DNA from: an uncultured Thermoleophilia bacterium
GTDB lineage: Bacteria > Actinomycetota > Thermoleophilia > Solirubrobacterales > 70-9
Length of the DNA: 64,000 nucleotides
Reading direction: 5' to 3'
Assembly (NCBI GenBank): GCA_963754225.1
Contig: CAVWEV010000005.1
Location: 282,282-346,281, forward strand
Positions within the stretch are counted from its first letter, which is position 1. The number at the start of each line of letters is the position of its first letter. The notes under the pieces are model-generated. The model saw only the letters and a list, made by a program, of their open reading frames with translations, ran no database searches and was not told where the DNA came from. This document shows, one piece after another, positions 7,038 to 42,883 of this stretch. The position numbers were made by a program, and so were the translations under genes.

Positions 7038-7334
7038 ATGGCCACCGAAGAAGAGGTCAACGAGGCGCTCGAGGAGGTCATCGACCCCGAGCTGGGGCTC
7101 GATTTCGTCTCGCTCGGCCTCGTCTACGACGTCGAGATCGAGAACGGCGAGGTGTTCATCACCTTCACGCTGACCACGCCCGCGTGCCCGATCGGGCCCC
7201 AGGTCACCGAGCAGATGCGGGAGTTCGTCGGCGAGCTCGACGGGGTCGAGAAGGTCCACCCGAAGATGATCTTCGACCCGCCGTGGTCCCCGGAGATGAT
7301 GACCGAGGACGCGAAGTTCGCGCTGGGGTTCTGA
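7038..7334 (+). CDS. DUF59 / MIP18 (SufT-like) Fe-S assembly family protein
   Basis: MATEEEVNEALEEVIDPELGLDFVSLGLVYDVEIENGEVFITFTLTTPACPIGPQVTEQMREFV..PPWSPEMMTEDAKFALGF*. This is the classic DUF59 layout with the TxxxCP motif. ATG at 7038 lies within track ORF 6684..7334. Confidence 0.85.
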   Translation: MATEEEVNEALEEVIDPELGLDFVSLGLVYDVEIENGEVFITFTLTTPACPIGPQVTEQMREFVGELDGVEKVHPKMIFDPPWSPEMMTEDAKFALGF

Positions 7335-7352
7335 ACGGCTCTAGCAAGCGGC
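7290..7352 (+). repeat. Repeat copy 1: 3' end of the DUF59 gene plus 17-nt flank ACGGCTCTAGCAAGCGG
   Basis: Core ATGATGACCGAGGACGCGAAGTTCGCGCTGGGGTTCTGA (7296-7334) recurs at 18923, 22294 and 39327, and decayed near 42755. Confidence 0.9.
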
Positions 7353-7421
7353 TACCCGTCCCGGGGGTCTCACAACAGGTCTGACACGCCTCTGATCATT
7401 CGGACCCTGTCGCCAGCGACG

Positions 7422-8410
7422 TCAGCCCTGGCGATCGAACCTCGGCTCGAGGGGCATCGTGGCATTCAGCAACGGCGACGGCACGCTCGGATCGTCCTGA
7501 TCGCAGACGAACAGGAAGTCGATTACCCCCGTATCGACCGCCGCGTCCACGCCCTCGACCTTCCAGCGAGGGTCGATCGTGCGCAGCCGTCGGACTTGGC
7601 CGCCGGCGTCGATCGTTCCGACGACCGAGCCGCGAATGTCGCCCTTCTCGGCGCCTTCCGCGGAGGCGGTGAAGCAGATCAACTCGTCCGTGAGCATCGT
7701 CGCGTCAGAGAAGCAGACGGCACGCCGTCAAGGTCGCCGAGCTCGTAGCCGCGCAGCGACCGCAACTCGCCCGGGGTCACTACCAGGTCCTCGGTGAGGG
7801 TTCGCGACAGGTCGGCGAGCTCGAACTCGGCTACCGCGTTGCGTCCGCCTCCCTCGTTGCCACGGTGAAGCAACCAGAGCCGGTCGCGGAGCACCGCCGC
7901 CCCCTCGATGTTGACCTCGCCACCCAACTCCTCGCGGAGCACGTCGTACACGGGTTGGACGTCGATCGTACGGGCGTCGCCCTGAAGCGAGCCGTCCGCG
8001 GCGAAGGAGCAGAAGAAGCCGCGGTCGCGGCTCGGATTCGAGCCCGAGCCGATTCCGAGCAGGCCCCCGTGGGGCTCGCCCTCGACCGGAGGCAGCGCAG
8101 TCAATGCTTCGAGATCCGGCTTGCGCTCGGCGCGCAGCTCGCCGTCCGCGGGCAGGTCGCCCGGCAACACCTTCAGCGCTCGACCCGGCTCGCCCGCGGC
8201 AATCTCGAAGATCGCCACCTGCAGCAGGTCGTCGCCGATCACGTAGACGAAGTCCCCCCTGCGCACGACGCCGGAAGCGGAAGCCACGTGCGCGGGGACA
8301 CCGTCGTCCGGGGGGTCGCGTAGGTCGAGATCGCGCAGCCGCCGGAGCTCGAGCGGCGGGAGGCTTTCGGGCGTGGCGACGCGGTCGTCCGTGTGACCCG
8401 GATCTGCCAT
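7422..8410 (-). CDS. hypothetical protein (possibly beta-propeller-like); one frame change near 7700
   Basis: Strong RBS GGAAGGAGAG before ATG at 8410 (MADPGHTDDRVATPESL..). Track ORF 7679..8470 continues into 7422..7697 (..LCFSDATMLTDELICFTASAEG..). No confident family. Confidence 0.5.
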
Positions 8411-8543
8411 CTTGATCTCTCCTTCCGAGTGGTTGGCGTCTGTGCCTGGACAATGCCGTCTACCCCGCACTTGGATCGAAAAACCCGCACGCGGCGGCGC
8501 TTCGGTTGTGGCTCCAAAACGGCGCTAGACGCGCCATCCACCA

Positions 8544-10162
8544 CTAGCCCCCGCCCCCCGGCAGCCGCTCCCGGCTTCGCTTGATCGCGCGGCCGAGCCC
8601 GTCGGGGATTCGCGAGCGTAGGTCGAGGGCGCCGGCGCCGAGAACGCGGGCCAGGTGGGCGCCGAGGCGCACGAGCTCGAACCGATCGGCAAGCGAGAGG
8701 TCCGAGAGCTCCGCGTCTCCGCTGCGGACCTCGTCGATGTCGTAGCGGCGCTTGGACTCGACGAAGGACATCGTCCGGCGGACGATCTCGTCGTCGAGGC
8801 CGCAGGCGGGCAATCCCTGGTCGAGCCAGGCGATCGCGCTCTGGTAGCCGAGCGCGAAGTCGCTGACGCGCAGCTCGCGGCTGAGAAAGCCGCCGAAGTC
8901 GCCCATGAACTCGCCTGCCAGCAGGCTGCCGACGTCGCCGTCGGAGCTGTCGGCAAGCAGCCAACGGGGAGATCACGTCGATCGCGACGCGCTCCTTGCC
9001 GACCAGCCCGCCGATCTCGCACAGCGCCCGGCGCAGCAGCTCGGTCGGGCTCGCCGTCCGCCGCGTCCGTGCCGTCGTGCCGCGGTGACGCTCGTCGGCG
9101 CGCATCTCCCGCGCGCTCGGACTCGACCTCCTCGAGGAACTCCCGCAGGCTGGACGCCGCCTCGTCGTCGAGCTCGTCGGCGAGCCGATCGGCGAGCCGC
9201 TCGGCCCACTCGATCCGCGAGTTGTCCTTCTCGATCCGGCGCATGTCGTCGAAGAGGCTCTGCTCGGAGAGGATCGCGAGCGCCCGCGAGGCGCCGGTCT
9301 GCCAGCTCGGCTCGGCGTCCGGGATCGCTCCACCTGTCCAGCGAGGCGTTCTCGGAGCGCGGGTCGATGAGGACGATGGACGCCCGTGCGAGTCCTCGTC
9401 GATCCCGTGCAGCGCGCGGCCGGCGGCGATCACGCGCCCGAGCGGCTGCGCGCCGAGCAGGCCGCCGTCCGTGTACCAGAGGTGGCCGGACTCGGGGAAG
9501 TTCTCGATCCCGTGGCTCTCGTAGGCGTCGGCGTCGGGACGGCGGTCGAGCAGCTGCGGCGCGAACCCGCCCGGGCTCGCGGCGGAGGCGAGGACGAAAT
9601 CGAGCGGCGAGCGGCCCTCGGGCTCGAGTCATCTGCTCGCACCCCGCCGCCCGGCTCGAGCTCGAAGCGCCCCCAGTCGGCGTAGGTGGCGCCGGCATCG
9701 GCGCGTCGCGGCGCAGGCCGCGAATCGGATACGTGAGCCCGCGCAGGCCGGTGACCTGGACGTGCAGCGCGATCGTGCGGTTCTGGCGATACTCGATGTC
9801 GTCGGGGTCGGCTCGGCCGGGCCGTCGGGGTCGAGCACCTCCGGTACGCGCTCGCGCAGCTCGTCGAACGAGAGCAGCGACCGGGAGTCGCGTGCTGCGC
9901 AGGAGCGGCAAGCGTCACCCGCTCGACCCAGGCCTCGTGCAGGAGCGCCTCCGGGATCGAGACCCTCGAGCAGCGCGTGCGCGGTGAAGAAGCTCACCAG
10001 CGCGCCGGCGGAGGCGCCGCCGATCGCGTCGACGTGGCCTCCTGACCCTCCTCGGCGTCGAGGTAGCGCGACGGCGACGGCAAGGCCGGCGGCGGCGCCG
10101 GCCTCATAGGCGCCGAGCGAGGCGCCGCCGGAGAGGGTCAGGTAGAAGCGGAGCGGTCGCAT
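8544..10162 (-). CDS. patatin-like phospholipase; frame disrupted
   Basis: MRPLRFYLTLSGGASLGAYEAG (oxyanion GGxxxG), IGGASAGAL (GxSxG) and YTDGGLLGAQPLG (catalytic Asp-Gly) by my translation. C-terminus in track ORF 8544..8906. Pieces are spread over ORFs 9629..10162, 9430..9918, 8525..9433 and 8544..8906. Confidence 0.7.
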
Positions 10163-10292
10163 CGTTCACCAGTAGTACCCGGCTGTAGGCGACTTACGCG
10201 CGACGGCGATGTCGGGCTCGCAGCTTCGGCTCGGATCTGATTTGGCTTTGCAGCCCGGCGGGTTCCAACCCCGCGCGAGCCGGAAAACCTGC

Positions 10293-10421
10293 TCAGAACA
10301 ATCGGATCAGCAGGTTCACCAAGATGGTCAGCGCGATTGAGAGCGCGATTGACCAGACAAGGCAGCCGGGCATGAAGCGCACCTGGGTGCGTTCGCCCGA
10401 TCGCTTCCAGATCGCGATCAT
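10293..10421 (-). CDS. small membrane protein (42 aa), hypothetical
   Basis: Below the track size cutoff. My translation is MIAIWKRSGERTQVRFMPGCLVWSIALSIALTILVNLLIRLF*. It sits directly downstream of the 10435..10635 gene. Confidence 0.3.
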   Translation of the reverse strand: MIAIWKRSGERTQVRFMPGCLVWSIALSIALTILVNLLIRLF

Positions 10422-10434
10422 CTACGGCGTCGCG

Positions 10435-10635
10435 TCAACTTCGAGCGGCCGTCAGAGCGCGACGCAGTGTCCCAACGACGTAGTAGACGGCAAGTGCGAA
10501 GAAGACCCCACCGATCACCGCACGAACCTGCTCGTCCGCCAGCGGGGTCCGCTCGGACACCGGTCCGGCGACGCTCCCGGCAACCTTCTCCCGCCAGCCA
10601 ACAAGTCCCGTCTGAGCAAGCTCAGTGGCGTCCAT
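10435..10635 (-). CDS. small membrane protein, hypothetical
   Basis: Track ORF 10435..10644. ATG at 10635 is preceded by GTGAGGA. One TM segment (VIGGVFFALAVYYVVG). Confidence 0.45.
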   Translation of the reverse strand: MDATELAQTGLVGWREKVAGSVAGPVSERTPLADEQVRAVIGGVFFALAVYYVVGTLRRALTAARS

Positions 10636-10719
10636 CGTCCTCACTTTCGTTCCATCGCGCTCGGTCTGAGACCCCCCGGCCCCTCGGCATCCCGGCAGCC
10701 GGCGGGGCGAGAGTACGCG

Positions 10720-11313
10720 CTACGCCTTCTTAGCCGCCTTGTCAGCGGTCTCGCTCACCGTCTGGACGCTGCTCGCCACGCTGCTCACGCGCTGCCCGAA
10801 CCGATCGGCACGCTTTGCGCCATCGGTAACGGCCCCGGCGATCTTTCGAGCATCGAGATTCTTGAGCTCCTTACCTCGCGGCATCGTCACCCCGAGTACC
10901 TTGCGACGGCGAGAGCGCGCGTTGTTGAGCGCCGCGGCTCCAGCCAATCCGGCAATCGCGACACCACCCGCGATCAGAGGCGTCTTCGCGCGCTTGACGA
11001 AGCCGGCCACACCTTGGGCAGCACTCTGAGCACCTGAAGAGACCGTTTGCGCACCGGAGGACACCGCCCCCGTGACCCCCTCAACCGCGGTCGCTCCGTT
11101 CCCGGAGCGGCTCGAACGCTCCCGCGTGCTTCCGGCAGCCCGCGCGCTCGGCTTCTTTTGCGACGCCTTCCTCTGCGCAGAGCTCCTGCTTTGGCGGGCG
11201 GACCCTCCGCTCGACGAGCGACCACCCGAGCGACCGTTCGAGGCACGCGCCTTCGAGCCGGATTTCGAAGAACCCGACGAACCGCGGCGTTGGGATGTCT
11301 TGGTCTGGGCCAT
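10720..11313 (-). CDS. membrane-anchored protein with Ser/Arg/Lys/Gly-rich disordered N-terminus
   Basis: MAQTKTSQRRGSSGSSKSGSKARASNGRSGGRSSSGG.. followed by TM segment PLIAGGVAIAGLAGAAAL. RBS GAGAGGAAAC before ATG at 11313. The N-terminal style is shared with the genes at 12671..14058 and 14058..15008 and with the tail of 15666..16920. Confidence 0.6.
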   Translation of the reverse strand: MAQTKTSQRRGSSGSSKSGSKARASNGRSGGRSSSGGSARQSRSSAQRKASQKKPSARAAGSTRERSSRSGNGATAVEGVTGAVSSGAQTVSSGAQSAAQGVAGFVKRAKTPLIAGGVAIAGLAGAAALNNARSRRRKVLGVTMPRGKELKNLDARKIAGAVTDGAKRADRFGQRVSSVASSVQTVSETADKAAKKA

Positions 11314-11438
11314 GTTTCCTCTCTTTTGCTGGGAAATCCGTTCTCCGATCACTTACCCGCAGGGAATCGGACTAATCCCTCGTCCCCCGTGGCGTAGATG
11401 TCGAGCGGGCGCGCGGCGAAGCCCGAGCAACTGTTCCC

Positions 11439-11663
11439 CTAGCGCATCCGCAGTGGAACCTCGAACTCCTCGCTGCACTCCTCCGCCACGTCGGCCGCGT
11501 CGAGCAGCTTGTTCGCGAGGTCGCGCGCCTCTTCTACGGTCATGAACTGCCACCTGTGTGGCCGCACCACCGCCACGTCCAGGTTGGCGCCATCTGCGTC
11601 GTGGTGCTCGAACACCGTGACGATGGTCAACTCCCTCGTCGCGGTTTCGGTCGGGTCGGTCAT
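11439..11663 (-). CDS. small acidic hypothetical protein
   Basis: ATG at 11663 after GAGAGGAGGG. Sequence MTDPTETATRELTIVTVFEHHDADGANLDVAVVRPHRWQFMTVEEARDLANKLLDAADV.. Confidence 0.45.
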   Translation of the reverse strand: MTDPTETATRELTIVTVFEHHDADGANLDVAVVRPHRWQFMTVEEARDLANKLLDAADVAEECSEEFEVPLRMR

Positions 11664-11928
11664 CGGTGGTGTCCCTCCTCTCGCTCGCTGCAGGTATCGG
11701 TTCGTGGCGCCAAGTAACGCATGCGACGCGGACGAAGACATCGGCGAGCTCGAGGCTCCTAGATCCGCGCGCTCGCGTCGTCCCTACTAGCCCCCGAGGG
11801 CTCACCTCGGTTGAAGCGGCTCGACGTTCTCCCGCGACATCGCCTACTCCGACAGCCCGGCGGCTTCGAGGGCCCGGTCGCGGGTCGAGTATCGGGGCAC
11901 TCAATCTGGATCTGCTCCGGAGGACTCG

Positions 11929-12216
11929 TCACGACTTCCGCTCCCTTCGGCCCGCGATCATCTCCTGCACCCGGCCGACGCTAGGCCGCGACGGGGAAGC
12001 GGCGTTCCGGCGTGTCCGCCCCGGCTCGCCCGCCCGCTTGCCTTCCCTTCGGGATGTGACGATCTGCTGCACTCGCGAGAGGCTAAGACCGGTTGCGGCG
12101 GCGACGGCTCGGCGGCTCATACCTGCGTCGCTCGCCTTCACGATCAGATCGTCGCGGCGTTTCTTAGCCGCCTCTAGTTGCTCCGAGGCGCGTCTCAACT
12201 GCGTGTCGAACGGCAC
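11929..12216 (-). CDS. small helix-turn-helix protein, hypothetical regulator
   Basis: ..DAGMSRRAVAAATGLSLSRVQQIV.. looks like a sigma-region-4/Xre-style HTH. Track ORF 11929..12216. Confidence 0.45.
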   Translation of the reverse strand: MPFDTQLRRASEQLEAAKKRRDDLIVKASDAGMSRRAVAAATGLSLSRVQQIVTSRREGKRAGEPGRTRRNAASPSRPSVGRVQEMIAGRRERKS

Positions 12217-12353
12217 GTTTAGTTTCCTACACGCACATGGAAGATATGCGCACGCACCGCCGCAGCGGCCGGGCGCGTGGCACCGAAGGGATTAGCTCTG
12301 CAGGCTTGGGCGAAAGCAGCTGATGGGAGACGGAGCACGCGCGAGTCTCGCCG

Positions 12354-12668
12354 CTAGCCGTCCTCGTCCGAGTCAGGTTCTCGCCTCGCTTCGGCATCCT
12401 TTATCTCCGCCGCGGCGCGCCAGCGGACGTGGACGTCGCGGTAGGTAACGCCGGGCTCAACCTCGTCGGGGAGATTCTCCCGCTCGGTGTGTGAGCCTCC
12501 CTCGCCCTCGATCCTCTCCATCGCGCGGGCAAGCTCAGGGTCGATCTCGCTCTCGGCGTGGGTATCCACCTCGACCCGCGGCTTGCGCTTGAACCGCAAG
12601 CGCTTGGCGCTGGCGGCGGCGCCGATCTCGACGTCAGGCTTGCCGGCGCGATCCCGCTCGCGCGCCAC
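12354..12668 (-). CDS. hypothetical charged protein
   Basis: GTG start 3 nt after the upstream stop. Sequence MARERDRAGKPDVEIG..THAESEIDPELARAMERIEGEGG.. No family recognised. Confidence 0.4.
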   Translation of the reverse strand: MARERDRAGKPDVEIGAAASAKRLRFKRKPRVEVDTHAESEIDPELARAMERIEGEGGSHTERENLPDEVEPGVTYRDVHVRWRAAAEIKDAEARREPDSDEDG

Positions 12669-12670
12669 CG

Positions 12671-14058
12671 CTACTCGTCCCTGGCGGCCCTACGCACGTC
12701 CGCCACGGTGATCCGGCCGTCGGGGCCGCTGCCGTCGACGATCGTCGGGATCGACGTCCAGCTCTTCGGCGGTGCGAAGAGCCTTTTCCGTCGCGTTCAG
12801 CTCCTCGGCCTTGCGCTGCTTGCGCCGCTCCCCGACCTCCTTCGCCTTGCGGGTCGCGGCGAGGCCCAGCTCCTTCGCCTCCTCCTTCGTCGCGGCAGAG
12901 AGCTCCTTCGCGACGAGCTTCGCGGCCAGCTTCGCGATCTCGGCGCGGCCGGCCTGAGTCCCTGCGTCGCCGCCGTTGCCGCCACCGCCCCCGACGGACG
13001 CCGGCAGCCGCCTGCTCGAGCTGGCCGGCGGCGCCGCCGACGCCTTGAGCGATCCCACCGACGGCCTCGCCGGCACCTTGACCGACCTCTCCGACCGCTC
13101 GCTCGGCTCCGTGCACGCCTTCGCCCACGCCTTCGGCCGCCTCGCCGACGGCCTCACCCGCCTGGCCGGCCGTATGGCCGACGCCCTGTACGGTCTGATC
13201 GAGGTTGCCGACCGCCTCCCCGGCCCCCTCGCCGACGTCGCCAACGGCTTCGCCGGCGCCCTCGCCGACATCGCCGACCGCCTCGCCGGCGCCCTCGCCG
13301 ACATCACCGACGGCCTGGCCGGCGCCCTTGCCGACGCCGCTCACGGCCCTGCCGGCCCCCTCGCCGATCTCGCCGACGCCCTCTCCGGCCCCCTTGCCGA
13401 TGAACTCGAGGGCGTCCTCGGCGCCCTCGCCGACGTCCTCGACGGCTTCCCCGGCCTCGCCGAGCATGTCGCCGCCGCCGGCGCCGATGTCCTCGACCGC
13501 GGCACCGATGCTCTCGAGCAGCTCAGGATTCCGGTCGAGCGTGGTCATGACGCGGTCGACGATGGCGGCCACATGGTCAAGACGCACCTTCACGAGCGCC
13601 TGCGCCTCCACCCCGCGAATGTCCAGGCGGACGCGTCCGAGGTGGACGTCGACGCCAACCTTCAGCTTGACGAGGTCGAGCACGTATGCGTTCAGCGAAA
13701 CGTGCGCGTCCAGGTTCTCGAGCTCGAAGTGGAGGCTGTCGAGCTTGACGACGGGAACGTCGAGCAGAACGTCGGGAAGCTCGTCGTCGAGCTCCCACGG
13801 GTCCATCTCGGCGTAGTGCTGGTATTCGCGCTCCGCCGCGGTGCCCAGACCCTCCACATTCTTCGCGAAGCGGTACTTCTCGGTCTTCTGCGAGGCTGGA
13901 CGGGAGTCGTCGTCGCGACGCTGCGGGCTCGACCTGTTGGTGCGCTTGGACTGCGGGCGCGTCATGGCTTGCCGCTTGCCCTTGGAGCCGTCCTTTCGGG
14001 AGTTCGCGTTCGAGGCGTTGCCGGTGCTGCGACGCTTTTTCGTTCGCTGGGTGGCCAT
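12671..14058 (-). CDS. repeat protein: basic disordered N-terminus, conserved core, 11-residue Gly/Ala/Val/Glu repeats, PSBD-like C-terminus; two frame changes
   Basis: MATQRTKKRRSTGNASN.. Core DVPVVKLDSLHFELENLDAHVSLNAYVLDLVKLKVGVDVHLGRVRLDIRGVEAQALVKVRLDHV. Repeats GDVGEGAGEAV x3 and variants. After frame changes near 13010 and 12755 it ends ..AEELDVDP.TIVDGSGPDGRITVADVRRAARDE*. Confidence 0.6.
13040..13440 (-). repeat. 33-bp (11-codon) tandem repeats inside the 12671..14058 gene
   Basis: For example, six successive 33-nt units from 13204 to 13401 (..gccgaccgcctcgccggcgccctcgccgacatc..). Confidence 0.85.
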
Positions 14059-15008
14059 CAACTCTCACCTTTACCTTTCTGCTTCCTGGCACGCCCCTGG
14101 CCGGACTGTCCACCCTGAGCGAGGTTGTCGGTCAGCTGCTCGGCACCCTTACCCACGCCCTCGACGCCCCGGCCGGTGCCGCGCCCGACACCGGCGACGC
14201 CGCGCTTGGCGCCCCGTCCGACACCGGCGACGCCGCGCTCGGCGCCTTCACCGATCTCGCCGACGCCTTCGCCGGCGCCTTTGCCCACCTGGCTTACGGC
14301 CTGGCCGGCGCCTTCGCCCACGGGGCCAAGGGCCTTTTTGGTCCCTTCGCCGACGTCCTCGACCGCGTCGCCGGAGTGGTCGAGCAGGTCGCCGGTGCCG
14401 GCGCCCAGCTCCTCGACCGCCTTGCCCACGCTTTGAAGCAGGGCGGGATTGCGATCGAGGCTCAGCAGGACCCGTTCGAGGATCGCCGTTACGTTGTTGA
14501 GCTTCGCCTTGAGGAGCGCCTGGGCCTCGACGCCCTCGATCTTCAGCTCGACCTTGTCGAGCTGCGCCTCGGCCCCCACGCCGATCTTCACCAGCTTGCG
14601 TACCTCGGCGAGCACGGCCACCTGCGCGTGCAGGTCGTCGACCTCGACGTCGATCTCGTCGACCTTGACGACCGGAACGTCGATCAAGACGTCCGGTCCC
14701 CCCGCGATGTCCTTCGGATCGACCACCGAATAGTCCTTGAATTCCTCTCGCTTGCGCTTTCGACGTGAGGAACTGCGGCCGTTGCTCCCCGAGCTCACGG
14801 ACCGCGTCTGGGACGGCCTCACTCGCGCGTGGCCTTCGTCCCCGACGTGTCCCGCCGCTTCCTGCGAGGGGTTCTGCAGCGCCTGAGGCTTCGAGCCCTG
14901 CTTGGAAGAGCCGGACTTCGACGAGCTGCTGCGCTTCGAGCCGCTGCCCGACTTCTTGCTCCCGGACCGCGAGCTCGACTTCTTGCTCGACTTTTTGTTG
15001 GTCGCCAT
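14058..15008 (-). CDS. paralog of the 12671..14058 repeat protein (intact)
   Basis: MATNKKSSKKSSSRSGSKKSGSGSKRSSSS.. Core DVPVVKVDEIDVEVDDLHAQVAVLAEVRKLVKIGVGAEAQLDKVELKIEGVEAQALLKAKLNNV aligns with the neighbour. Repeats VGEGAGQAVSQ/VGKGAGEGVGE. RBS AGGAGA. The stop overlaps the next start (TGATG). Confidence 0.7.
   Translation of the reverse strand: MATNKKSSKKSSSRSGSKKSGSGSKRSSSSKSGSSKQGSKPQALQNPSQEAAGHVGDEGHARVRPSQTRSVSSGSNGRSSSRRKRKREEFKDYSVVDPKDIAGGPDVLIDVPVVKVDEIDVEVDDLHAQVAVLAEVRKLVKIGVGAEAQLDKVELKIEGVEAQALLKAKLNNVTAILERVLLSLDRNPALLQSVGKAVEELGAGTGDLLDHSGDAVEDVGEGTKKALGPVGEGAGQAVSQVGKGAGEGVGEIGEGAERGVAGVGRGAKRGVAGVGRGTGRGVEGVGKGAEQLTDNLAQGGQSGQGRARKQKGKGES
14150..14360 (-). repeat. 33-bp tandem repeats inside the 14058..15008 gene
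   Basis: Consecutive 33-nt units, for example gacaccggcgacgccgcgcttggcgccccgtcc / gacaccggcgacgccgcgctcggcgccttcacc. Confidence 0.8.
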
Positions 15009-15041
15009 CCTGTCTCCTGTTGACTAGTTCTTGCTGGCCGG

Positions 15042-15066: not shown

Positions 15067-15098
15067 AATTTGCCGCGGATAATCCGCTTGTCGGCCGG

Positions 15099-34280: not shown

Positions 34281-35486
34281 ATGCCCGGGACCGCGGCAGA
34301 GACGCTCCACTCGCGGCTCGACGCGTTCCGAGCGGTTCGCACCGAGGCGAATCGAGACTTCTTCGCGGCCGAGGCCGAGCGGCTCGCTCGCTGCTGCCAC
34401 TCCATGGCCGAGCGCTTCGCTCGCGGGGGGCGACTCGTCGCGCTCGGGCGCTCGCCGGTGGCGCGCTCGGATGCGCGTCATGTCGCGGTCGAGTTCGTCC
34501 ATCCGGTCATCGTGGGCAAGCGCGCGCTTCCGGCGCTCGCGCTCGCGGGTGAGGGTGGACCGCTGGAGAGACAGGTCCGCGCGGTGGTCGAATCCGGGGA
34601 CATCGCGATCGGCTACGGGATCGAGGACCCGGACGAGCTCGAGACGCGGGACGCGCTGGCGGTGGCGAGGGAGCTCGGGTGCCTGACGATCGCTTTCGGC
34701 CCCGGCCCCGCGGAGTGGGTGTTCGAGCCCGAGGCTCCGGACTCGTTCGTCAGGCAGGAGCTCGTCGAGACCCTCTACCACGTGCTGTGGGAGCTCGTCC
34801 ATGTCTTCTTCGAGCACCGCGGCCTGCTCGAGGGACGCGAGATCGGCCCGGTCCACGACACCGGCGCATCGAGCTTTCTCTATCCCTTCCTCTCGGAGTC
34901 TGAGGCGGACCTCGAGGGCGTGATCGAGGACGTTCGGGCCTCGATCCTGATGAAGGCGCAGGAGGTGGGTTCGCTGCGGGAGCAGACCCTGGCGGAGGGC
35001 GGCGAGGCGCTGCTTGCCGCCGCCGACGAGCTGCGCCGCGCCCGGGATGCCGGGGCCCGTGTGCTGGCGATGGGCAACGGCGGCTCGGCGACCGACGCGA
35101 TGGACTTCGTCGCCGACCTTCGGGCCGCGGGGCTGCGTTCGATCGACCTCACCGAGGACGCGTCGATCCTGACCGCGATCGCGAACGACGTCGGCGTCGA
35201 GGAGATCTTCCAGCGACAGGTGATCGCGTACGGGCGCGCGGGGGACATCGCCGTGGCGCTGTCGACGAGCGGAAACTCGGCGAACCTGATCGAGGCGCTG
35301 ACCGAGGCTCGCCGCCAGCGGCTCACGACGCTCGCGTTCGTCGGCTACGACGGGGGGCGGATCGCCTCCGAGCGGCTGACGGACCACGTGGTCGTGACGC
35401 GGTCTCAGCACATCCCCCGCATCCAGGAGGCACAGGCGAGCGGCTACCACGCCCTGGTCGAGCTGATCCGCGCACCCGAGGAGTGA
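34281..35486 (+). CDS. tandem SIS-domain protein (GmhA/phosphoheptose-isomerase-like), hydrogenase-associated
   Basis: Second half: RVLAMGNGGSATDAMDFVADL..VALSTSGNSANLIEAL..FVGYDGG. First half is a more diverged SIS-like repeat. Confidence 0.7.
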   Translation: MPGTAAETLHSRLDAFRAVRTEANRDFFAAEAERLARCCHSMAERFARGGRLVALGRSPVARSDARHVAVEFVHPVIVGKRALPALALAGEGGPLERQVRAVVESGDIAIGYGIEDPDELETRDALAVARELGCLTIAFGPGPAEWVFEPEAPDSFVRQELVETLYHVLWELVHVFFEHRGLLEGREIGPVHDTGASSFLYPFLSESEADLEGVIEDVRASILMKAQEVGSLREQTLAEGGEALLAAADELRRARDAGARVLAMGNGGSATDAMDFVADLRAAGLRSIDLTEDASILTAIANDVGVEEIFQRQVIAYGRAGDIAVALSTSGNSANLIEALTEARRQRLTTLAFVGYDGGRIASERLTDHVVVTRSQHIPRIQEAQASGYHALVELIRAPEE

Positions 35487-35489
35487 CCC

Positions 35490-37834
35490 GTGGCGTTGTC
35501 GGCGAGAACAACCGAGAGGCGTCGGGTGAGGGCCCGGGTTGCCGGGGTCGTTCAGGGAGTTGGATTTCGACCCTACGTCTTCCGTCTCGCCGAGGAGCTG
35601 GGGCTCGGTGGGTGGGTGCTGAACGACGAGCGCGGAGTGGAGGTCGAAGTCGAGGGTGAGCCGGCCTCGGTCGACGAGTTCCTGGCAAGGCTCCCCGCCG
35701 AAGCGCCACCGCTCGCGAGCGTCGAGTCGGTCCGCGTCGACCCCGCGCGGGCGAGCGGGGAGTGCACATTCCGGATCGTCGAGTCGGAGCGCGGCGCCGA
35801 GCCCGAGGCGCTGGTCTCGGCCGACTTCGCCACCTGCCCCGACTGCCTGACCGAGCTGTTCGATCGCGGCCAACAGGCGTCACCGATATCCGTTCATCAA
35901 CTGCACGAACTGCGGCCCGCGGTTCACGATCGTGCGCGGCGTCCCGTACGACCGACCGTTGACGACGATGGCCGGGTTCGAGATGTGCGACAGCTGCCGG
36001 GCCGAGTACGAGGACCCCCGCGACCGCCGCTTCCACGCCCAGCCGAATGCGTGCCCTGAGTGCGGTCCCCGCGTTCGCCTCCTCGACCCGGCCGGAGCCG
36101 AGCTGGCCCGAGGGCTGTATCGCGATGCGGTCGCCGCCGCCGCCGCGATGCTCGCCGCCGGGAAGGTGGTCGCCGTGAAAGGGCTCGGGGGTTACCACCT
36201 CGCGTGCCGGGCCGACGACGAGGCCGCGGTTCGCGAGCTCCGCTCGCGCAAGCACCGCGAGGACAAGCCGTTCGCGCTCATGTGCGGGAACCTCGCCGAA
36301 GCGCGGGAGCTGGTCGAGCTGACCGCCCACGAGGAGGAGCTCCTCGCGGGGCCGGAGCGACCGATCGTGATCGCGCGACGTCGTCCCCGGGCGGAGGTCG
36401 CCTCCGCGGTCGCGCCCTACTCGCCCGACCTCGGGGTGATGCTTGCCTACTCACCGCTCCATCACCTGCTTCTCGCCGACGCCGCGAGGACGCTCGTGAT
36501 GACCTCCGGCAACGTCTCGGACGAGCCGATCGCGTACCGCGATGACGACGCGCTCGAACGGCTGGGGGAGATCGCCGACGCCTTCCTCGTCAGCGACCGC
36601 CCGATCCACATCCGAACCGACGACTCGGTGCTCCGCTCACTGGACCCCTCGGTCCGCTCCGAGCCGGTGTTGATGCGGCGCTCCCGGGGCTTCGTGCCGG
36701 CCAGCATCGAGCTGCCGCTCGAGGCGCCGCCGCTGCTCGCGTCAGGCGCCGAGCTGAAGAGCACCTTCTGCGTCGCCAAGGGACGTCGCGCCTGGGTCAG
36801 CCACCACATCGGCGACCTGAAGAACTGGGAGACGCTGCACTCGTTCCGCGAGGGAGTGGAGCACTTCGAGCGCGTGTTCGCCGTCGAGCCGCGCCTAGTC
36901 GCTCACGACCTGCACCCGGACTACCTGTCGACGCGCGAGGCGCTCGAGCGAGTTGGCGACCGGCTCGTCGGCGTCCAGCACCACCACGCCCACCTCGCAG
37001 CATGCCTCGCGGAGCACGGTGAGCTTGGGCCGGCGATCGGCGCGATCTATGACGGCAGCGGCTACGGGACCGACGGAACCGTGTGGGGCGGCGAGCTGCT
37101 CGCGGGCGACCTTGCGAGGTTCGATCGCGTGGGGCTGCTGTTCCCGGCCCGCTTGCCCGGCGGCGACGCTGCGGTTGGCGAGCCGTGGAGGATGGCGTGC
37201 GCGTGGCTAGCGCTCTCGCACGACGAGGAGCTGCCCGCGATCCCGTCACCTCTCCGCACGGCGGTCGAACCCCGCCGCTGGGAGGCGGTCTGCGAGCTCG
37301 TTCGCACCGGGGTCGGCTCGCCGCTCACGACCAGCGTGGGGCGGCTGTTCGATGCGGCGGCGGCCTTGTGCGGCCTCCGCGCCAAGGTCAACTACGAGGG
37401 CCAGGCGGCGGTCGAGCTCGAAGGCGCGACGCGACCCGCGCGAGCGGGGCGCCTACCCGATGCCGCTGCTCCCCGCCGACCGCGTCGGTCAGGGCGTGGG
37501 CCGAGGGGCGATGACTGTTCTCGACGCTCGCGAGACTGTTCGCGCCCTCGTCGCTGACCTCGAGCGGGGCGCCTCGCCGGCCACCGTCGGAGGTCGCCTG
37601 CACAACGGTCTCGCGAATGCCACCGCGGAGGCATGCGCGCGCGAGGCCGAGCGGCGCGGCACCTCGACCGTAGTGCTCTCGGGCGGGGTGTTCCAGAACC
37701 GGTTGTTGGTCGAGCGCACGCTCGCGCGGCTGCAGGAGCACGGCCTGAGGGTCCTGCTGCCTACGCGCCTGCCTCCCAACGACGGCGGCATCTCCTACGG
37801 CCAGGCGGCGGTAGCGGCCGCGACCCACCCGTAA
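35490..37834 (+). CDS. hypF: carbamoyltransferase HypF; two frame changes
   Basis: Acylphosphatase domain VAGVVQGVGFRPYV. Zinc fingers CPDC..(frame change near 35870)..NCTNCGPRFTI..CDSC..CPECGP. YrdC-like KGLGGYHLAC. C-terminus SGGVFQNRLL..NDGGISYGQA after a frame change near 37430 (track ORFs 35490..36059, 35932..37557, 37352..37834). Confidence 0.85.
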
Positions 37835-37841
37835 CTGTTTG

Positions 37842-38594
37842 ATGGATTTCGAGTTTCTCTACAAGGCCGTCGAGGACGTCGACATGTGGTTCGAGGGTCT
37901 GTTCGCCGGGGCGCCGTTCGCCGTTGTCCTCGGGATCGCGCTCATCCTCGGCGCCCGGCACGCATCCGACCCCGACCACCTCGTCGCCGTTACCTCGCTC
38001 GTGGCCGCGGACGGCGGGGACGTGCGGGGCGCCGCCCGGCTCGGCGCCTGGTGGGGGGCCGGCCACGCCGGGGCGCTGCTCGTCCTCGGCGTCCCGTTGA
38101 TCCTGTTCAAGTCGGAGATGCCCGCGTGGCTCGAGCGTGGCGCCGAGACAGCGGTCGGAGTCGTGATTCTCGTGCTCGCGCTGCGGATCGTCGTCAAGTG
38201 GGCACGCGGCGACTTCCGGGCCGGGAGACACGAGCACCGCAATGCCTCCCAGTCGGTCGGCCACCGCCACCTCCGCGAGGGCGCGGACACCGCGCACCCT
38301 CACCGCCACCTTCGCTCGCGACGTCAGGCGCTCGGGATCGGCGTCCTCCACGGGCTCGCTGGGACCGGCCCGGTGGCGTTGCTGCTCATCGCCGCGCTTC
38401 CCACCCAGCTCGAGGCGGCGGCGGCGCTCGCCGTGTTCGCGCCGATGTCGGTGATCTCGATGGCGCTGTGCACGACAGCGTTCGCGTGGCTGCTTACCCG
38501 CCCGGTAGTCGACCCGATCTATCGCACCGTGCTGATCCCGGCGTTCGGGATCTTCGGGCTCATGTTCGGGCTCTGGTACACGGGGATCGCGTAG
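37842..38594 (+). CDS. NicO/NiCoT-like nickel(cobalt) permease with His-rich loop
   Basis: GARHASDPDHL (HAxDxDH-type signature), loop HEHRNASQSVGHRHLREGADTAHPHRH and second-half motif GVLHGLAGTGP. About 6 TM segments. Confidence 0.7.
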   Translation: MDFEFLYKAVEDVDMWFEGLFAGAPFAVVLGIALILGARHASDPDHLVAVTSLVAADGGDVRGAARLGAWWGAGHAGALLVLGVPLILFKSEMPAWLERGAETAVGVVILVLALRIVVKWARGDFRAGRHEHRNASQSVGHRHLREGADTAHPHRHLRSRRQALGIGVLHGLAGTGPVALLLIAALPTQLEAAAALAVFAPMSVISMALCTTAFAWLLTRPVVDPIYRTVLIPAFGIFGLMFGLWYTGIA

Positions 38595-38641
38595 AGGCTT
38601 ACGAACACGCGCACTCGCACCCCGTCATCTATCTGAGGTGA

Positions 38642-39139
38642 TTACCGTGCTGCGGCCGGCTCGCCGACGAGCGCGTCAGTGCCTACCCGGATCCGTTCCT
38701 GCTCCAGCTGGGCGTGTTGCGTTCGGGCCCGCTCCATCAACCGGTCGAGATCGATCGCGGCGAGCGGCTCGTAGCGGTCCTGCACCCGCAGCAGCACCTG
38801 CCACATGCACTCCTTGCCGGCGACGCCCAGGGTCAGGCTCTCGAGCGCCATGAAGAGCCCGATGTCGGGCTCGCCCGAGCTGAGACCGCTGAACTTCACG
38901 CGGCTCGCCTTCTCGGTCATCCAGGCACCGGCCTGCTTGACGGGGTTCTTCGTCGTACGCATACGCTCCATCAGCTCGATGAGGGTCTCCCGATCCTCCT
39001 CGATCTCGGCCGTGATCGTCTCCATCAGCGCTCGCAGCCGGCCCTCGGAGCGGTCCCGAATCTGCTTCGCGAGGTCGAATCCGAGCGTCGAACCAGCGAG
39101 GTGATCGTTGAGGTAGGTGTCCATCGGCTTGTCCGCCAT
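38642..39139 (-). CDS. hypothetical protein
   Basis: Intact 165-aa ORF MADKPMDTYLNDHLAGSTLGFDLAKQIRDRSEG.. RBS GGGAGG. No family recognised. Confidence 0.45.
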   Translation of the reverse strand: MADKPMDTYLNDHLAGSTLGFDLAKQIRDRSEGRLRALMETITAEIEEDRETLIELMERMRTTKNPVKQAGAWMTEKASRVKFSGLSSGEPDIGLFMALESLTLGVAGKECMWQVLLRVQDRYEPLAAIDLDRLMERARTQHAQLEQERIRVGTDALVGEPAAAR

Positions 39140-39326
39140 CGAACCTCCCGATACTTGGGTGCGTGTGTCGAACCGGCTACCCGGATCGCGCGGTCCTACT
39201 CAGCGTGCGGAGCTCAGGTCGTCCGCTGCTCCTTCGGCTCGCGCGACGGTACGCGGCGGACGCGAAACCGCACTAGAAAGCCGTTTCCCGGACGGGGCGG
39301 TACGGGGTGGACGCCGCGCCCCTTAG

Positions 39327-39365
39327 ATGATGTCCGAGGACGCCAAGTTCGCGCTGGGCTTCTAG
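39327..39365 (+). repeat. Repeat copy 4 of the DUF59 3' end
   Basis: ATGATGTCCGAGGACGCCAAGTTCGCGCTGGGCTTCTAG, preceded in frame by TAG. Upstream 39245-39320 carries the GGTACGGGG sub-repeats and a CACTAGAAAGCCG box shared with copy 3. Confidence 0.9.
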
Positions 39366-39418
39366 ACCCTGCAAGTCGGCACTTTCTGAGCCGAGGGGAG
39401 CGCGTCGAGTACGCCATT

Positions 39419-39436
39419 TGCAACCCGATTGCAACC
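39419..39436 (+). repeat. TGCAACCC-GAT-TGCAACC direct doublet
   Basis: Lies 54 nt downstream of repeat copy 4. Confidence 0.8.
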
Positions 39437-39695
39437 GCGCGGACGACCGCCGCGCATAACCGTTTGAATTGCGGCGCTCTCGCTCTTACGGGATCGGAAA
39501 GGCGACGCTCACATAGCCGCGGTTCTCGTGTCTGAAAAGCAAAGTGGCGCTGAGACGAGCTGGGACGTCTATCCGTATGGGCCTCTCGGGGCCGAACACG
39601 GGTTGGGCTCTGATGCAGCCTACGAAGACGACGGATCGGCCGCCCCGGCTTGCCGGTCTTCTCGTCGAGAACGCTGTGAGCGGCAAGCTACGCGT

Positions 39696-42130
39696 TCACG
39701 GAGCGAACGCGGGCGAGGGCGCGGGCGGAAGCTCGACGGTCGCCTCGTCAGCAGCGGGTAGCCCGCCCGTCTCGTCACGTACTGGCGCGGCTCGCCGCCC
39801 CGGGGCCGTAGGCACGCGGGGGTCGCGGGACCGCGCCCGGTCCGTCACGTCGGCGCCTCGTGCTCGCGTTGCCTCGTGCTCGCGCCGCCTGCGCTCACGG
39901 TCCAGGCGTCGCGCCTCGCGGGCGCGAGCCTCGGGGTCGTCGAAGCGGAACGGATCGGTCGGGGGAGCCGATGCGGCCACCGCGTCGCGGATTAGAGAGA
40001 GATCGTCGAGCCGCCGATCTATCTGTGTTAGTAGCCGCCTCAAATCCTCGTCGGCACTTCCCTTCAGGTACTGGCGCGGCCCGCGGTCGATCCGCTCGTG
40101 AAGGCGCCGGATCTCCTGGTCCAGATAGTCTCGGAGCGGAGGTGGGTCGTAAGTGTCCCGCCGGGCGTCGTCGAGGCCGGGGACCGTCACCTCGGCGGGG
40201 CTCGTGGGTCGGAGCGCCCTAGCGCCGTCTCCGCGCGCGTTCGCGTTGCCGTCTGAGCCGATCTCTCGGAAGCGACGCGAGCGGGTAGGCCTGGCGAACG
40301 TCTGAGGCACGTCGCCGCGTCTCAGCGCGAGCGGCACAAGAGTCCCCGCCGTCATCACGAGCGCTAGCGCGACCAGGATCAGCCCTGGCGATCCAGCGGG
40401 CACGTTCATGTCCGCAGCTCCCTGCGCGAACCAAGCGAGCGCCGCCGTAACCGAGCCGCGCTCCTCGGTGACAGTGAGCACGTCGTAGGCGTCGCCGCCG
40501 CGCAAGACGAACGCCGTTGCGACGGCCAGCGCGACCGCGGCGGTCGCCGCGAGTTGCGGCCCTGCGAACTTGAACACGGGCATGGTGAGGTGAGCCCGAT
40601 TCTCGCGTACGTGCAGCATGACCACAGCCGCGGTGACGACCGAGTAGATCAGGGCGTTGGTGAGACAGAACCAGTAGTAACCCCGTGCGGAGCCGGGATC
40701 ACTCACGACGATTGCGGCAACAGCACAGGCGAGGGCCAGCACCGGGTAGGGCAACAGGGCGACCAAGGGCAGCCGTCTCGGCCTGGTCACCCGCTTTGGC
40801 GTCACCTTAAAGGTGAACTGCTTCCTCAAGACCCACCCCGCAAGGGCCTGGACAACCCCCCAGAGCACCCAGGGCCACCTGTGTAAAGGCGAAGAGGAAG
40901 GTCTCCCAGGTGAACAGCTTGGCGTCCGCTGGCCGGTGGTATCCCTGTCGCCGCAGCCACCAGAGAACGGCGAGCCCGGCGAGGCCGACCAACCCTGCCC
41001 GGATGAGGAACTCGAGCAGGGGTACGCCCACCCAGGGAGTGTCGGTCAGTATCGCCACGACCGGAAACACCAGGACCATCAGCATGTGAAAAGCCATCAG
41101 CGGGTACCAGACCTGGTTGTATGCCAGCTTCACCTTCTGGCGGACGCCCAGACCGCCCCAATAGCGCTTACTGACCTGCAGCAGGATGTTGGTCAGGCTT
41201 CGAGACCACTGGTATTCCTGAACGATGCAATCGGCGAAGGTGGAAGGCCCGTCCCCGTGCGCCATGGCATCGATCGCGAACACCCCGCGCCAGCCGCGGG
41301 AGGCCAGCATCAGGGTGGTCGAGAAGTCCTCCGCCAGCTCTGGACCAAGGCCACCGACCTCCTCGAGCGCGGCGGTTCGTACCGCGTAGTGAGAGCCGAT
41401 GCACGCGGGCGCGTACTCCCCCGTGTATCCCGCCTGTTGCGGACCGTGGAGGGGGGCCTCCCTGTAGAGGCGCCCTCGCGCAGCCCAGGACTCGGTCGCG
41501 TTTTTGTCGCAAACGCTCGGCGCGGCTACGTAACCAACGGTCGGATCGCCAAACGGTCGAACCATCTCCCGCAGGTATCCCGGGGCCGGAACGTGATCGG
41601 CGTCCAGTTGCGCGACGACGTCGTAATCCCGGTAGCCCCAGTGGTCATAGAAGTAGGCCAGATTGCCTTCCTTGCACCTGGTCCTTCGAGGCCATGTCGG
41701 GCGGTGGTAGCCATCGACTCCCTCCCGGCAGGAGACCTTGACGCTGTGCTCCTCGCACCAGCGCAGGGTCTCCGGCGAAGGGGACTCGTCCGCCAGCCAA
41801 ACGTCGTAGGGGTAGGGGTAGTCCTGCCGCAACATGCCGTCGAGCGTTTCCGTCAACACGACCCACGGTTCGGAGGGGGCTTTGGTCACGATGATGGCCG
41901 TTCGCAACCGCGGGATAGGGAGACTCGGATTCGGCCGCTTGATCCGATACGTGAAGAAGAAGAACCACCCGGGCAGGAGCATCGAGTAGAAGACCATCAC
42001 CGAACTGACGACCATCCCGGCTGGAGTCACCCAGTGATCGCTCTGAAGCCACCAGATCCAGAAGACGACCACGGTGCCGATCCAGACTGCCAAGAGCGCG
42101 CGATATGACCGTTTCTGACTGGCGCTCATT
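39696..42130 (-). CDS. GT2 processive glycosyltransferase (cellulose-synthase-like) with long C-terminal membrane plus coiled-coil extension; one frame change near 40865
   Basis: IIVTKAPSEP, QLDADH, GSHYAVR..LAEDFSTTL and QEYQWSRS (QxxRW-type) in track ORF 40807..42708. It continues as WGVVQALAGWVLRKQFTFKVTPK.. in 39696..40868, with RDYLDQEIRRLHERIDRG..LRRLLTQIDRRLDDL. Confidence 0.75.
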
Positions 42131-42708
42131 ATGTCCACGAGGTAGCGCCGGTTGTCGACTGTCTCATCGGCCGGCGGGATGGGGCGGAGCCTTGGCGCCC
42201 TTTGCCTGAGAGGCGAGCGGGGGCCCCCATGGGTCCGCGTGCGTGCCGTCTCCCCGCCACGCAGCCCGAGCCTGCCGGGAGCAGGCAAGCTCAAACCAGG
42301 TTCCCCACCATTGCCCGCACCGCTCAGTGAGCGAAACGCGGTAGTCGCAGCGCCGGATGCCGGCCGTCGTCGGCGTCGCTCCGCAATCGCTCCGCCGCAG
42401 AACTCGGCCAGCAACACGAGCATCAATAGGAGCGTGATGAGCTCGAGCGTGGAGGGAAGCCCTGGGTCCGAGCCAGACCTCTCCGGCTCGTGGAGGGCCG
42501 ACTTTGGTCGAGCAGAGGCTTCCACCGTCCCGCGCGTGAAGTCCAGTCGTCTCGAGGTCTCGACCCCAACGACTCCGCTTCTTCCGCTAAGCACGTCCTG
42601 CTCGGGCTCGGCTTTGAGCACCGGCGCTCCGGCGAGCTGGATTGACACGCCGAGTAGCGCTGCTATCAGACCTTTTGCGAGCATTCGTTCCACCGGCGAA
42701 AGACTCAA
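42131..42708 (-). CDS. possible separate exported/anchored protein, in frame with the GT2 gene
   Basis: MLAKGLIAALLGVSIQLAGAPVLKAEPEQD (signal-like) and ..GLPSTLELITLLLMLVLLAEFCGGAIAERRRRR (TM plus Arg tail). No stop before the GT2 Met at 42130, so the boundaries are unclear. Confidence 0.3.
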
Positions 42709-42754
42709 CCCAGCCGTTTGACCGGGCGTTGGGCCTCTCGCGATTCCCTCGCCC

Positions 42755-42817
42755 TTTTGAAGGCTGAAAGCGCAAACTCCGGACTCTGGGGTACGAGCAG
42801 CCTAGAAGAAAATCCGC
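42755..42817 (+). repeat. Repeat copy 5 (decayed) of the DUF59 3'-end unit
   Basis: GCCCTTTTGAAGGCTGAAAGCGCAAACTCCGGACTCTGGGGTACGAGCAGCCTAGAAGAAAATCCGC aligns by eye to GCCCCTTTGATGATGACCGAGGACGCGAAGTTCGCTTTGGGGTTCTGAACGGC.. of copy 3 and to the CTCTAGCAAGCGG flank. Confidence 0.55.
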
Positions 42818-42863
42818 TATTTGCGGCTTTTTCCGGTTCGGTGGAGAAGCTGAAACCGCCCGA

Positions 42864-42883
42864 TGCAACCCCGATTGCAACCC
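42864..42883 (+). repeat. TGCAACCCC-GAT-TGCAACCC direct doublet
   Basis: About 50 nt downstream of decayed copy 5, the same arrangement as at copy 4. Confidence 0.8.

Follow-up and report, generated by a model that had tools for sequence, protein, structure and literature searches.

Integration of an element at the end of a gene, its decay to a cis-mobilizable element (CIME) and subsequent accretion is an established model (PMC5704250). It has been described in Streptococcus thermophilus for ICESt1 and its CIMEs, with the 3' end of fda as the target (Pavlovic 2004; Bellanger 2011; both summarised in PMC5704250). We analysed a 64,000-nucleotide stretch of DNA from an uncultured Thermoleophilia bacterium of the order Solirubrobacterales (contig CAVWEV010000005.1, positions 282,282 to 346,281; the whole stretch is called the window), in which the 3' end of a DUF59/SufT-like gene recurs on one strand and separates a series of gene modules. 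We conclude that the window most probably contains a tandem accretion array of decayed or cis/trans-mobilizable, CIME-like islands at the attB (chromosomal attachment site) that a family of integrative mobilizable elements (IMEs) uses.

In the excerpts that describe it, the ICESt1/CIME system is like the window in that an element with a tyrosine integrase targets and restores the 3' end of a protein-coding gene, the attachment (att) sites are direct repeats, and decayed CIMEs that keep attL and attR lie in tandem with newer arrivals. It differs in phylum, target gene (DUF59/SufT-like in the window), integrase lineage and arm motifs; moreover, the window array (at least four modules, 36-41 kb) is wholly integrase-less, with no functional element in cis. 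Tandem islands are also found at ssrA in Dehalococcoides, where some lack an integration module and have been proposed to be cis-mobilizable (PMC3146451). They resemble the window in that many lie 3' of a single-copy gene with direct repeats of its 3' end, and in their strain-variable content and ecologically important metabolic cargo, but the target is a tmRNA gene, the repeat is 20 bp long and the recombinase is a CcrB-like serine recombinase (PMC3146451). The system studied here has instead a protein-coding target, a coding-capable core of ~45 bp and a tyrosine integrase with arm-type repeats.

In Streptomyces, an island of the toxicogenic region (the TR1/TR2 pair at aviX1) was reportedly moved in cis by an adjacent integrative element, its mobility being shown experimentally by Zhang and Loria in 2017. 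This, too, is site-specific accretion in an actinobacterium, with the 3' end of a protein-coding gene as the target and a non-autonomous island carrying adaptive genes; it differs from the window in having only two modules, a short palindromic att and experimentally demonstrated mobility. The tycheposons of Prochlorococcus are said to comprise tandem integrative elements together with integrase-less remnants, with partial copies of the target gene between them. They share with the window strain-variable islands and niche-defining cargo, and differ in target (tRNA genes), element backbone and host phylum. Integrons, too, have ordered, promoter-poor modules split by recombination sites, with cargo that lacks a recombinase of its own. 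However, the sites in the window are direct copies of a gene end rather than folded attC, the modules reach 17 kb, their genes point in both directions, and an IME carries the linked recombinase, a lambda-type integrase. No intI or attI was found beside the array, whose flanks hold FxsA, HAD and AddAB genes on the left and a WS/DGAT gene on the right, and no recombinase was found in the 64 kb. The original prediction had named an integron-like arrangement, with a recombinase acting in trans, as one possibility; the arrangement is not integron-like, and IMEs with a lambda-type integrase use the same core.

The window is thus a new instance (in target gene, host order and element family) of a known structure and not a new kind of system. 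The hotspot at the DUF59/SufT-like 3' end, with its cognate tyrosine-integrase/TrwC element family, was previously undescribed, a search of a paper collection having found no earlier account of either. Solirubrobacterales are abundant in soil and almost uncultured. To our knowledge, their mobile elements are essentially unknown, and the 45-bp core provides a simple marker for finding accessory islands in their genomes.

Copies of the DUF59 gene end and the elements that share it

We scanned the window with a degenerate 39-nt pattern, using 100 shuffles as a control. Four matches were found, all on the plus strand (7296-7334, 18923-18961, 22294-22332 and 39327-39365), at the sequences originally quoted; the shuffles gave 0 matches, which puts the chance expectation at zero. 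A core-only nhmmer profile built from 171 copies from relatives recovered the same four cores (E 4e-16 to 3e-14) and nothing else significant in the window. A DUF59 gene body (FeS_assembly_P, PF01883, 98 aa, plus strand, 7038-7334), from a small gene of iron-sulfur assembly, is present only at copy 1. When the DUF59 protein was searched against copies 2-4 by tblastn, the matches were limited to residues 84/85-98, the last 14-15 residues, in agreement with the claim that these copies lack a gene body. The unit is 39 nt long, comprising 12 codons and a stop rather than the 13 codons and stop first reported. Homology starts at G-ATGATG and extends 6 nt beyond the stop (RCGGCY) in most copies, and 17 nt beyond it in copies 1 and 2; a 13-nt near-palindrome, CGCGAAGTTCGCG, can be read within the core. 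As first noted, the substitutions are mostly synonymous or conservative: the window copies differ by third-position changes, by Thr/Ser and by one Lys>Asn. Decay towards the distal end, which had also been proposed, may be represented by a putative fifth copy (see below); copies 2-4 show no progressive decay and fall instead into two allelic types, T/TGA and S/TAG.

Each core lies in a longer junction. Copy 1 (7293-7340, plus strand) is the gene-attached, attL-type site and consists of the last 12 codons, the stop and ACGGCT. Junction 2 (18767-19049, plus strand) contains a P-type arm, core copy 2 (18920-18966) and a downstream flank; junction 3 (22149-22413, plus strand) contains a P arm, core copy 3 (22293-22337) and a P' arm; and junction 4 (39183-39451, plus strand) contains a P arm (GGTACGCGG), core copy 4 (39325-39369) and a P' arm. 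A terminator scan showed nothing at the cores.

The same core was then followed in relatives. A scan of the GTDB with one genome per species gave 119 8-kb blocks, almost all from Solirubrobacterales. Most core matches were true DUF59 ends and about 20 of the 119 blocks held orphan copies. When the search was relaxed and applied to every fetched locus, the window among them, 32 orphan cores were collected; all have one common left boundary and 26 encode MM[TS]EDAKFALGF*. Their variability at the three codon positions (0.049/0.010/0.146) is heavy at the third, which fits the proposal that the copies diverged as coding sequence, each serving as a gene end, and they are conserved to the same degree as real gene ends. 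Wherever the context is visible in the fetched loci, the orphans lie 3' of DUF59 or beside the conserved right-flank gene and are not scattered. Arrays of two to four cores were found in L012, L015, L037, L102, L122, C1 (loci L029 and L080, CAVWOU010000010.1) and C2 (loci L054 and L043), with inter-core cassettes of 1.0-6.8 kb carrying unrelated cargo. Genes in relatives were called with a codon-model gene caller, as clustering of raw open reading frames (ORFs) was swamped by spurious ones at high GC. A core scan of viral contigs gave no match.

The prediction that no recombinase gene is present in the window held throughout. Pfam and NCBIfam searches gave no recombinase, transposase or relaxase match among the main ORFs of the modules, of the region from 42.9 to 48.2 kb and of the flanks; tblastn of the window with the integrase and relaxase of relatives and with XerD found nothing; and a six-frame search with an integrase hidden Markov model (HMM) returned noise only (best E 0.5). 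Several window ORFs have no family match at all.

In relatives, the search for a recombinase beside another copy of the core was successful. A motif regular expression for tyrosine recombinases failed, and ten integrase-sized ORFs beside orphan cores were rejected, all of them looking like cargo by eye (RTX-like repeats, NHL repeats, methyltransferase-like, histidine-kinase-like, GH3-like and similar). The first integrase was obtained by phmmer with E. coli XerD as the query. A Pfam screen of 97 non-flank cargo ORFs from relatives gave two Phage_integrase (PF00589) proteins and one TrwC relaxase. In locus L089, a structured arm comes after the DUF59 core, then, ~1.1 kb further on, a 378-aa tyrosine integrase on the opposite strand, and then TrwC; L060 has an integrase 88% identical to that of L089, ~1 kb after the core. 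We used the L089 integrase to search metagenomes and found 37 loci. In all that were sufficiently long, 0.3-4 kb separate the DUF59 end from the integrase gene's 3' end, with TrwC on the opposite side, and more than 20 contigs have tyrosine integrase and TrwC beside a DUF59 end.

Complete elements bounded by two cores were found in L133 (11.2 kb) and L149 (~10 kb). Besides the integrase (PF00589 with SAM-like domains), L133 codes for a TrwC relaxase-helicase of 1049 aa, an HTH/Gp49-like pair and a PIN protein; no mating-pore genes were recognisable in it, and it was therefore classed as an IME. Shortened forms are also present. Only C-terminal integrase fragments remain in L163, L164/L165, L148 and L166, those of L163 and L164/L165 sitting in elements of 2.3-2.7 kb between two cores. 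In C2, integrase fragments lie just ahead of the last orphan core, L093 has an N-terminal integrase remnant immediately 3' of the core, and a 1-kb cassette in L037 consists of the IME's HTH/Gp49-like (toxin-antitoxin) pair with the IME arms. These truncated elements trace decay directly, as a series. The element attached to the gene was, in all these loci, the integrase-bearing one, which fits entry next to the gene with older elements pushed outward.

The sequences on either side of the cores fall into types. Integrase-bearing elements have GCAGGGATTGC, three copies of GGGGTCA and three of CATCCCCA/CGTCCCCA after the proximal core, and two copies of CATCCCCAC before the distal core; a second arm type (first element of C1, C2, L102 and L106) has CCGTACCCAC instead. 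The window shows a third type (type B). Here a TGCARCC doublet follows cores 3, 4 and 5 at 45-70 nt (junction 3, a degenerate TGCAGCC doublet at 22377-22396 after GCGGTTTT; junction 4, TGCAACC at 39419-39436), and a doublet of this type (TGCAACC, 18784-18802) also lies ~120 nt before core 2. The left ends of the first two modules, S1 and S2, do not have it. The 9-mer GGTACGGGG precedes cores 2, 3 and 4 (18822-18830, 22215-22223 and 39299-39307) and occurs three times in 64 kb, at those sites only, against 0.35 expected. The P arm of junction 3 has in addition a hairpin, AAACCGC-N8-GCGGTTT. On either side of the core, junctions 2-4 retain conserved arms: junctions 3 and 4 (P-core-P') are 84-86% identical to junctions in C1, where the coding flanks are only 78% identical, junction 3 is likewise 84-86% identical to a junction in the metagenome contig L001 (ERZ25039531 contig_86398), and the arm and core of junction 2 are 77% identical to L026. 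To judge from these shared arms, the modules of the window belong to a coherent att family.

Empty sites and strain mosaics

Close strains were defined as metagenome contigs with the exact DUF59 protein and the same upstream genes, of which there are many. In six among the contigs listed (L003, L005, L006 and L008-L010), the DUF59 stop is joined directly to window position 43970. Their DUF59 protein is 100% identical to that of the window and their flanks are 93-96% identical, and the whole of 7335-43969 is missing. The junction reads TGA|GCGGCTAGTCGAG, that is, the stop and GCGGCT followed by the sequence from 43970. These are the empty sites called for if the modules are insertions. Three other sequences follow the DUF59 stop in further strains (L002/L007, L004 and L001).

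L001 is a mosaic, with only some of the modules and in another order. DUF59 is followed by a module of 1 kb whose initial P' arm is of the type found at the start of module S3, then by a second core and by part of S1; modules S2 and S3 are not present at its DUF59 locus. The S4 block (window 39615-42834, L001 16473-19677) is 95.8% identical, including the relic core 5. In L001 it has the PhoD block on one side and the glyoxalase gene (window 46212/46314) on the other, a different array position from that in the window, and its right boundary falls exactly after the motif GCGGCTTTTTCC.

The distance from the DUF59 stop to the WS/DGAT gene, 40.9 kb in the window, ranged from -3 to 9304 nt in 56 GTDB genomes and was within 100 nt in 13. 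Where DUF59 abuts WS/DGAT, 42883-48197 is wholly absent. Upstream of DUF59, the order FxsA, 285-aa gene, HAD, 151-aa gene and AddB/AddA is kept in relatives. The variable region thus spans 7335-48197, with intact cores confined to the proximal 32 kb, and the array measures ~36-41 kb. The four modules first delimited, S1-S4, are kept here, with the changes that S1 may be composite and that the variable region reaches 48.2 kb.

Proposed serial insertion and competing explanations

Serial site-specific insertion into the DUF59 3' end, as originally proposed, is supported by the empty sites, the L001 mosaic, the linkage of orphan cores to DUF59 and the recurrence of junction types in independent assemblies; all the checks that could be run were favourable. 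In the mechanism we propose, the ~45-bp DUF59 end (G-ATGATG...stop-RCGGCY) would be the attB of an IME family in Solirubrobacterales whose members encode a lambda-type tyrosine integrase and a TrwC/MOBF relaxase. The identity block of the element's attP would re-encode MM(T/S)EDAKFALGF-stop, so that integration would keep the gene intact, and the element's far end would then bear an orphan copy, the second one. Repeated entry at the gene-attached copy would stack elements in tandem, older ones being displaced outward. The stack in the window would then consist of four or five islands, if not more, and beyond them, as far as 48.2 kb, of older material poor in repeats; the islands, all of which lack integration and transfer genes, would be either decayed or intrinsically non-autonomous, with their att sites kept. 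By analogy with the integrase-bearing elements, we infer that the window islands entered through integrase-mediated recombination, and they could be excised, or moved as composites, by an integrase acting in trans or in cis from a newcomer. With the integrase physically linked to the core, an Xer-dependent explanation (integrative mobile elements exploiting Xer, or pdif modules) is unnecessary.

Composition moderately supports a foreign origin. All modules have a lower GC content (0.66-0.70) than the flanks (0.71-0.74; 70% for the window overall), and in tetranucleotide distance S1 and S4 lie beyond all flank controls and S2 does so only marginally.

Several observations weigh against accretion by this element family. 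An integrase with the type B arms was found in none of the fetched loci, so the window islands are tied to a recombinase by analogy with the elements of the other arm types (A/A2). No integrase remnant is present anywhere in ~40 kb, though a model of pure decay might predict one. The junctions at 43970 and at WS/DGAT have no core (none was seen at 43.9 kb), so that additional deletions, or a different origin, have to be assumed for the distal modules. In L015, a ~500-aa ORF that looks sulfatase-like by eye (3964-5412) ends at the TGA inside the ATGATG of the core at 5409; this cassette, and some other small ones alike, leaves no space for a P arm. The tetranucleotide composition of S3 is not distinct from that of the flanks. 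Finally, the many indel errors in the window make its split genes uninformative about decay. AddB (1300-4400) has at least five frame changes relative to the intact orthologue in L001, and island genes are split in the same way (7422-8470, 19027-20423, 35490-37557 and ~9020-10147). The window probably comes from an error-prone long-read assembly, and the splits in the DUF6929, KaiC, HypF and patatin-like genes are probably sequencing errors. Exact-protein look-ups with the products of 17706-18692 and 38645-39139 gave no match, probably because of the same errors.

Some of these points suit a different reading of the modules, as genuine integrase-less cassettes, mobile only through the core and its short arms, that a recombinase encoded elsewhere, by an IME or by the chromosome, routinely inserts into and excises from a dedicated, integron-like capture platform. 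Many inter-core cassettes are only 1.0-2.9 kb long and mostly carry one main cargo ORF (L012, two in L015, L102, L122 and L043/C2), and C1 also has short inter-core segments. The conservation of orphan cores, the conservation of the window arms across species, the lack of integrase remnants in all window modules and the different array positions of S4 in two strains are in line with such a platform as well. However, the intermediates with truncated integrases and the L037 cassette show that deletion yields cassettes of this kind, no platform-adjacent recombinase gene was present in any of ~100 genomes sampled, cassette genes are of mixed orientation, there is no attC-like structure, and no excised or circular form was seen, though no search was aimed at circular junctions. 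We regard a dedicated platform of this sort as quite unlikely. A related, broader proposal, that the DUF59 3' end is an order-wide platform for cassette capture, taking up anything from 1-kb genes to a 17-kb hydrogenase island with minimal att sites, is in our judgement unlikely. The minimal att would consist of the core and ~70-125 nt of arms, and an IME-borne or chromosomal integrase acting in trans would reshuffle modules routinely. Such a platform, if real, would be a functional analogue of the integron, derived from a lambda-type system and a protein-coding attB.

Tandem accretion at the IME attB also has to be set against recombination that needs no dedicated enzyme. The core is highly conserved throughout the order and could be used as a short stretch of homology, so that homologous recombination or local duplication anchored on the gene end might have produced the repeats. 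Yet replacement by homologous recombination makes no direct duplications with a fixed left boundary, whereas the boundary is identical in 32 orphans and the site has a physical link to a cognate family of integrases; we consider this explanation very improbable.

Nor do the repeats appear to be functional in themselves, as a 12-codon micro-ORF (MMTEDAKFALGF) or as a cis-regulatory DNA or RNA element near operons. All orphans keep the ATG, the open frame and the stop, and their substitutions are mostly synonymous. An element's copy becomes the real gene end after integration, however, which places attP cores under the constraints of the gene and makes a micro-ORF unnecessary to account for this coding-like pattern. 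Conservation also extends beyond the stop, integrase-bearing elements have this very block as their attL/attR identity block, and in the fetched loci with visible context the orphans occur in arrays 3' of DUF59 or beside the right-flank gene. No Shine-Dalgarno sequence was found at the proper distance before the orphan copies, and searches of the window for tRNAs and Rfam families gave none. A function of this kind is extremely unlikely.

Hardly any weight can be given to an assembly artefact, in which strain-mixed metagenome contigs were misjoined at a short shared repeat: many short-read contigs of the population stop just after DUF59, which the 45-bp core explains, and the window has its many indel errors, but the repeats are just 39-63 nt long, the junction types (DUF59 to an S3-type P' arm, and P arm-core-P' arm) recur independently in L001, C1 and L026, and arrays of two to four cores are found in many long-read contigs of metagenome-assembled genomes.

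Module content and minor sites

Module S3 (22414-39182, plus strand) is a complete group-1h-type [NiFe] hydrogenase island without a recombinase, which agrees with the locus having been called complete. The small subunit (26292-27362) and the large subunit (27425-29209) are preceded by PadR, two HypC, HypD and HypE genes and followed by NifU-Rieske, DUF5947, DUF6084, HycI protease, HypA, HypB and SIS-protein genes; a split HypF gene, a NicO-like nickel transporter gene and a 165-aa ORF on the minus strand are also present. The best PDB match of the large subunit is 5AA5, the actinobacterial-type group 1h enzyme of Ralstonia (E=2.8e-272). The island is missing at the DUF59 locus in strains with an identical DUF59 protein. 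An att-delimited, strain-variable island for a hydrogenase of the atmospheric-H2 type is of ecological interest, and its distribution suggests that, in this lineage, the oxidation of trace gases varies between strains and was acquired horizontally.

Module S1 (7341-18766) carries mixed cargo and no recombinase: a DUF6929 gene in split ORFs (7422-8470), a patatin-like region (~9020-10147, minus strand), 11-aa-repeat proteins (12634-15008, minus strand), an SRPBCC/polyketide-cyclase protein (15666-16949) and a Na/Ca exchanger (17706-18695). Family searches did not confirm the patatin lipase named in the original prediction; a GASAG-type motif and a homologue in L001 were all that was seen. The 33-nt (11-aa) tandem repeats at 13017-13521 and 14120-14408 lie inside two minus-strand ORFs (12634-14061 and 14058-15008), whose products are rich in Ala, Gly and Asp and have no family match apart from a sub-threshold one to CsmC. 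Module S2 (19050-22148), also without a recombinase, encodes a split KaiC-like ATPase (19027-20423, minus strand), a MerR-receiver regulator (20423-21097, minus strand) and a sigma-70 factor (21230-22099). In module S4 (39452-42754, minus strand), the two main ORFs are one of 390 aa without an assigned family (39696-40868) and a family 2 (GT2) glycosyltransferase (40807-42708), both on the minus strand.

A putative decayed core, copy 5, lies at 42755-42817 within a tentatively assigned junction (42755-42882, plus strand) that includes the motif GCGGCTTTTT and a TGCAACC doublet (42864-42882). The region shows collinearity to a P-arm-like stretch as well as to the TGCAACC doublet trailing copies 3 and 4, and its sequence is unchanged in an independent assembly (L001). 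Both nhmmer profile searches of the window missed it. In a global alignment with the copy 4 region it gave z=6.2, falling to z=3.6 without the doublet. The decayed fifth copy of the original prediction is therefore retained for its collinearity and its presence in L001, with the reservations that profiles do not see it and that most of the z score comes from the doublet; judged on its sequence it is probably a relic core.

A candidate tail of another decayed core was noted at 8472-8516 (GGCTCCAAAACGGCGCTAGACGCGCC, against GGGTTCTAAACGGCTCTGGGCGCGCC in L001). The tail and post-stop flank align with z=3.4, the core proper with z=-0.8, and in L001 a core stands immediately ahead of the homologue of window 8517. 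A relic here may divide S1 into modules of 1.1 and 10.4 kb. At 46250-46335, the stretch ACACCGTACGGGCCGGCGCCCTTTCCGAGCGGCGC resembles a P arm and a degraded core and is followed, just 5' of the glyoxalase gene, by a hairpin (CTTCAAG-CGCA-CTTGAAG). Since the score is borderline (z=3.8, with the copy 3 arm only), a further core at 46.2-46.33 kb was not accepted; the stretch may be another relic junction.

The distal variable region (42883-48197) has no recognisable cores. It contains DUF6328 (43050-43526, minus strand), DUF6411 (43715-43954), a 121-aa ORF (43974-44339, minus strand), DUF7800-PhoD (44530-45456), a 240-aa ORF, a glyoxalase gene (46336-46785) and small ORFs. An imperfect palindrome at 47979-48165 (two 91-nt arms, 71% complementary, with a 5-nt spacer) lies at the distal edge of the variable region, with a 92-aa ORF on one side and the WS/DGAT stop on the other, and could be a structured RNA or resemble a miniature inverted-repeat transposable element. 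The WS/DGAT acyltransferase gene itself (48198-49697, minus strand) is the conserved ancestral right flank and is convergent with DUF59.

At the other end, a translated stretch of 61 aa just upstream of DUF59 (6683-6865) matches sequence beside WS/DGAT, across the array, in several metagenome loci (L163-L166), which may reflect a small paralogous gene or a rearrangement. In L167-L177, DUF59 proteins of 127-141 aa that are 97-98% identical to that of the window are encoded directly after sufBD; either this is a paralogue, near-identical in sequence, or related lineages have the gene in another place. Two 97-98% homologues (P0003 and P0007) were considered as a source of type B arms and set aside as uninformative, their context after sufBD being different. 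Finally, the cargo beside an orphan core in L081 looks defence-like by eye, with a TIR-like N-terminus and an Abi-like protein (2829-4001, minus strand, and 4301-5071), and the hotspot may thus also collect anti-phage systems.

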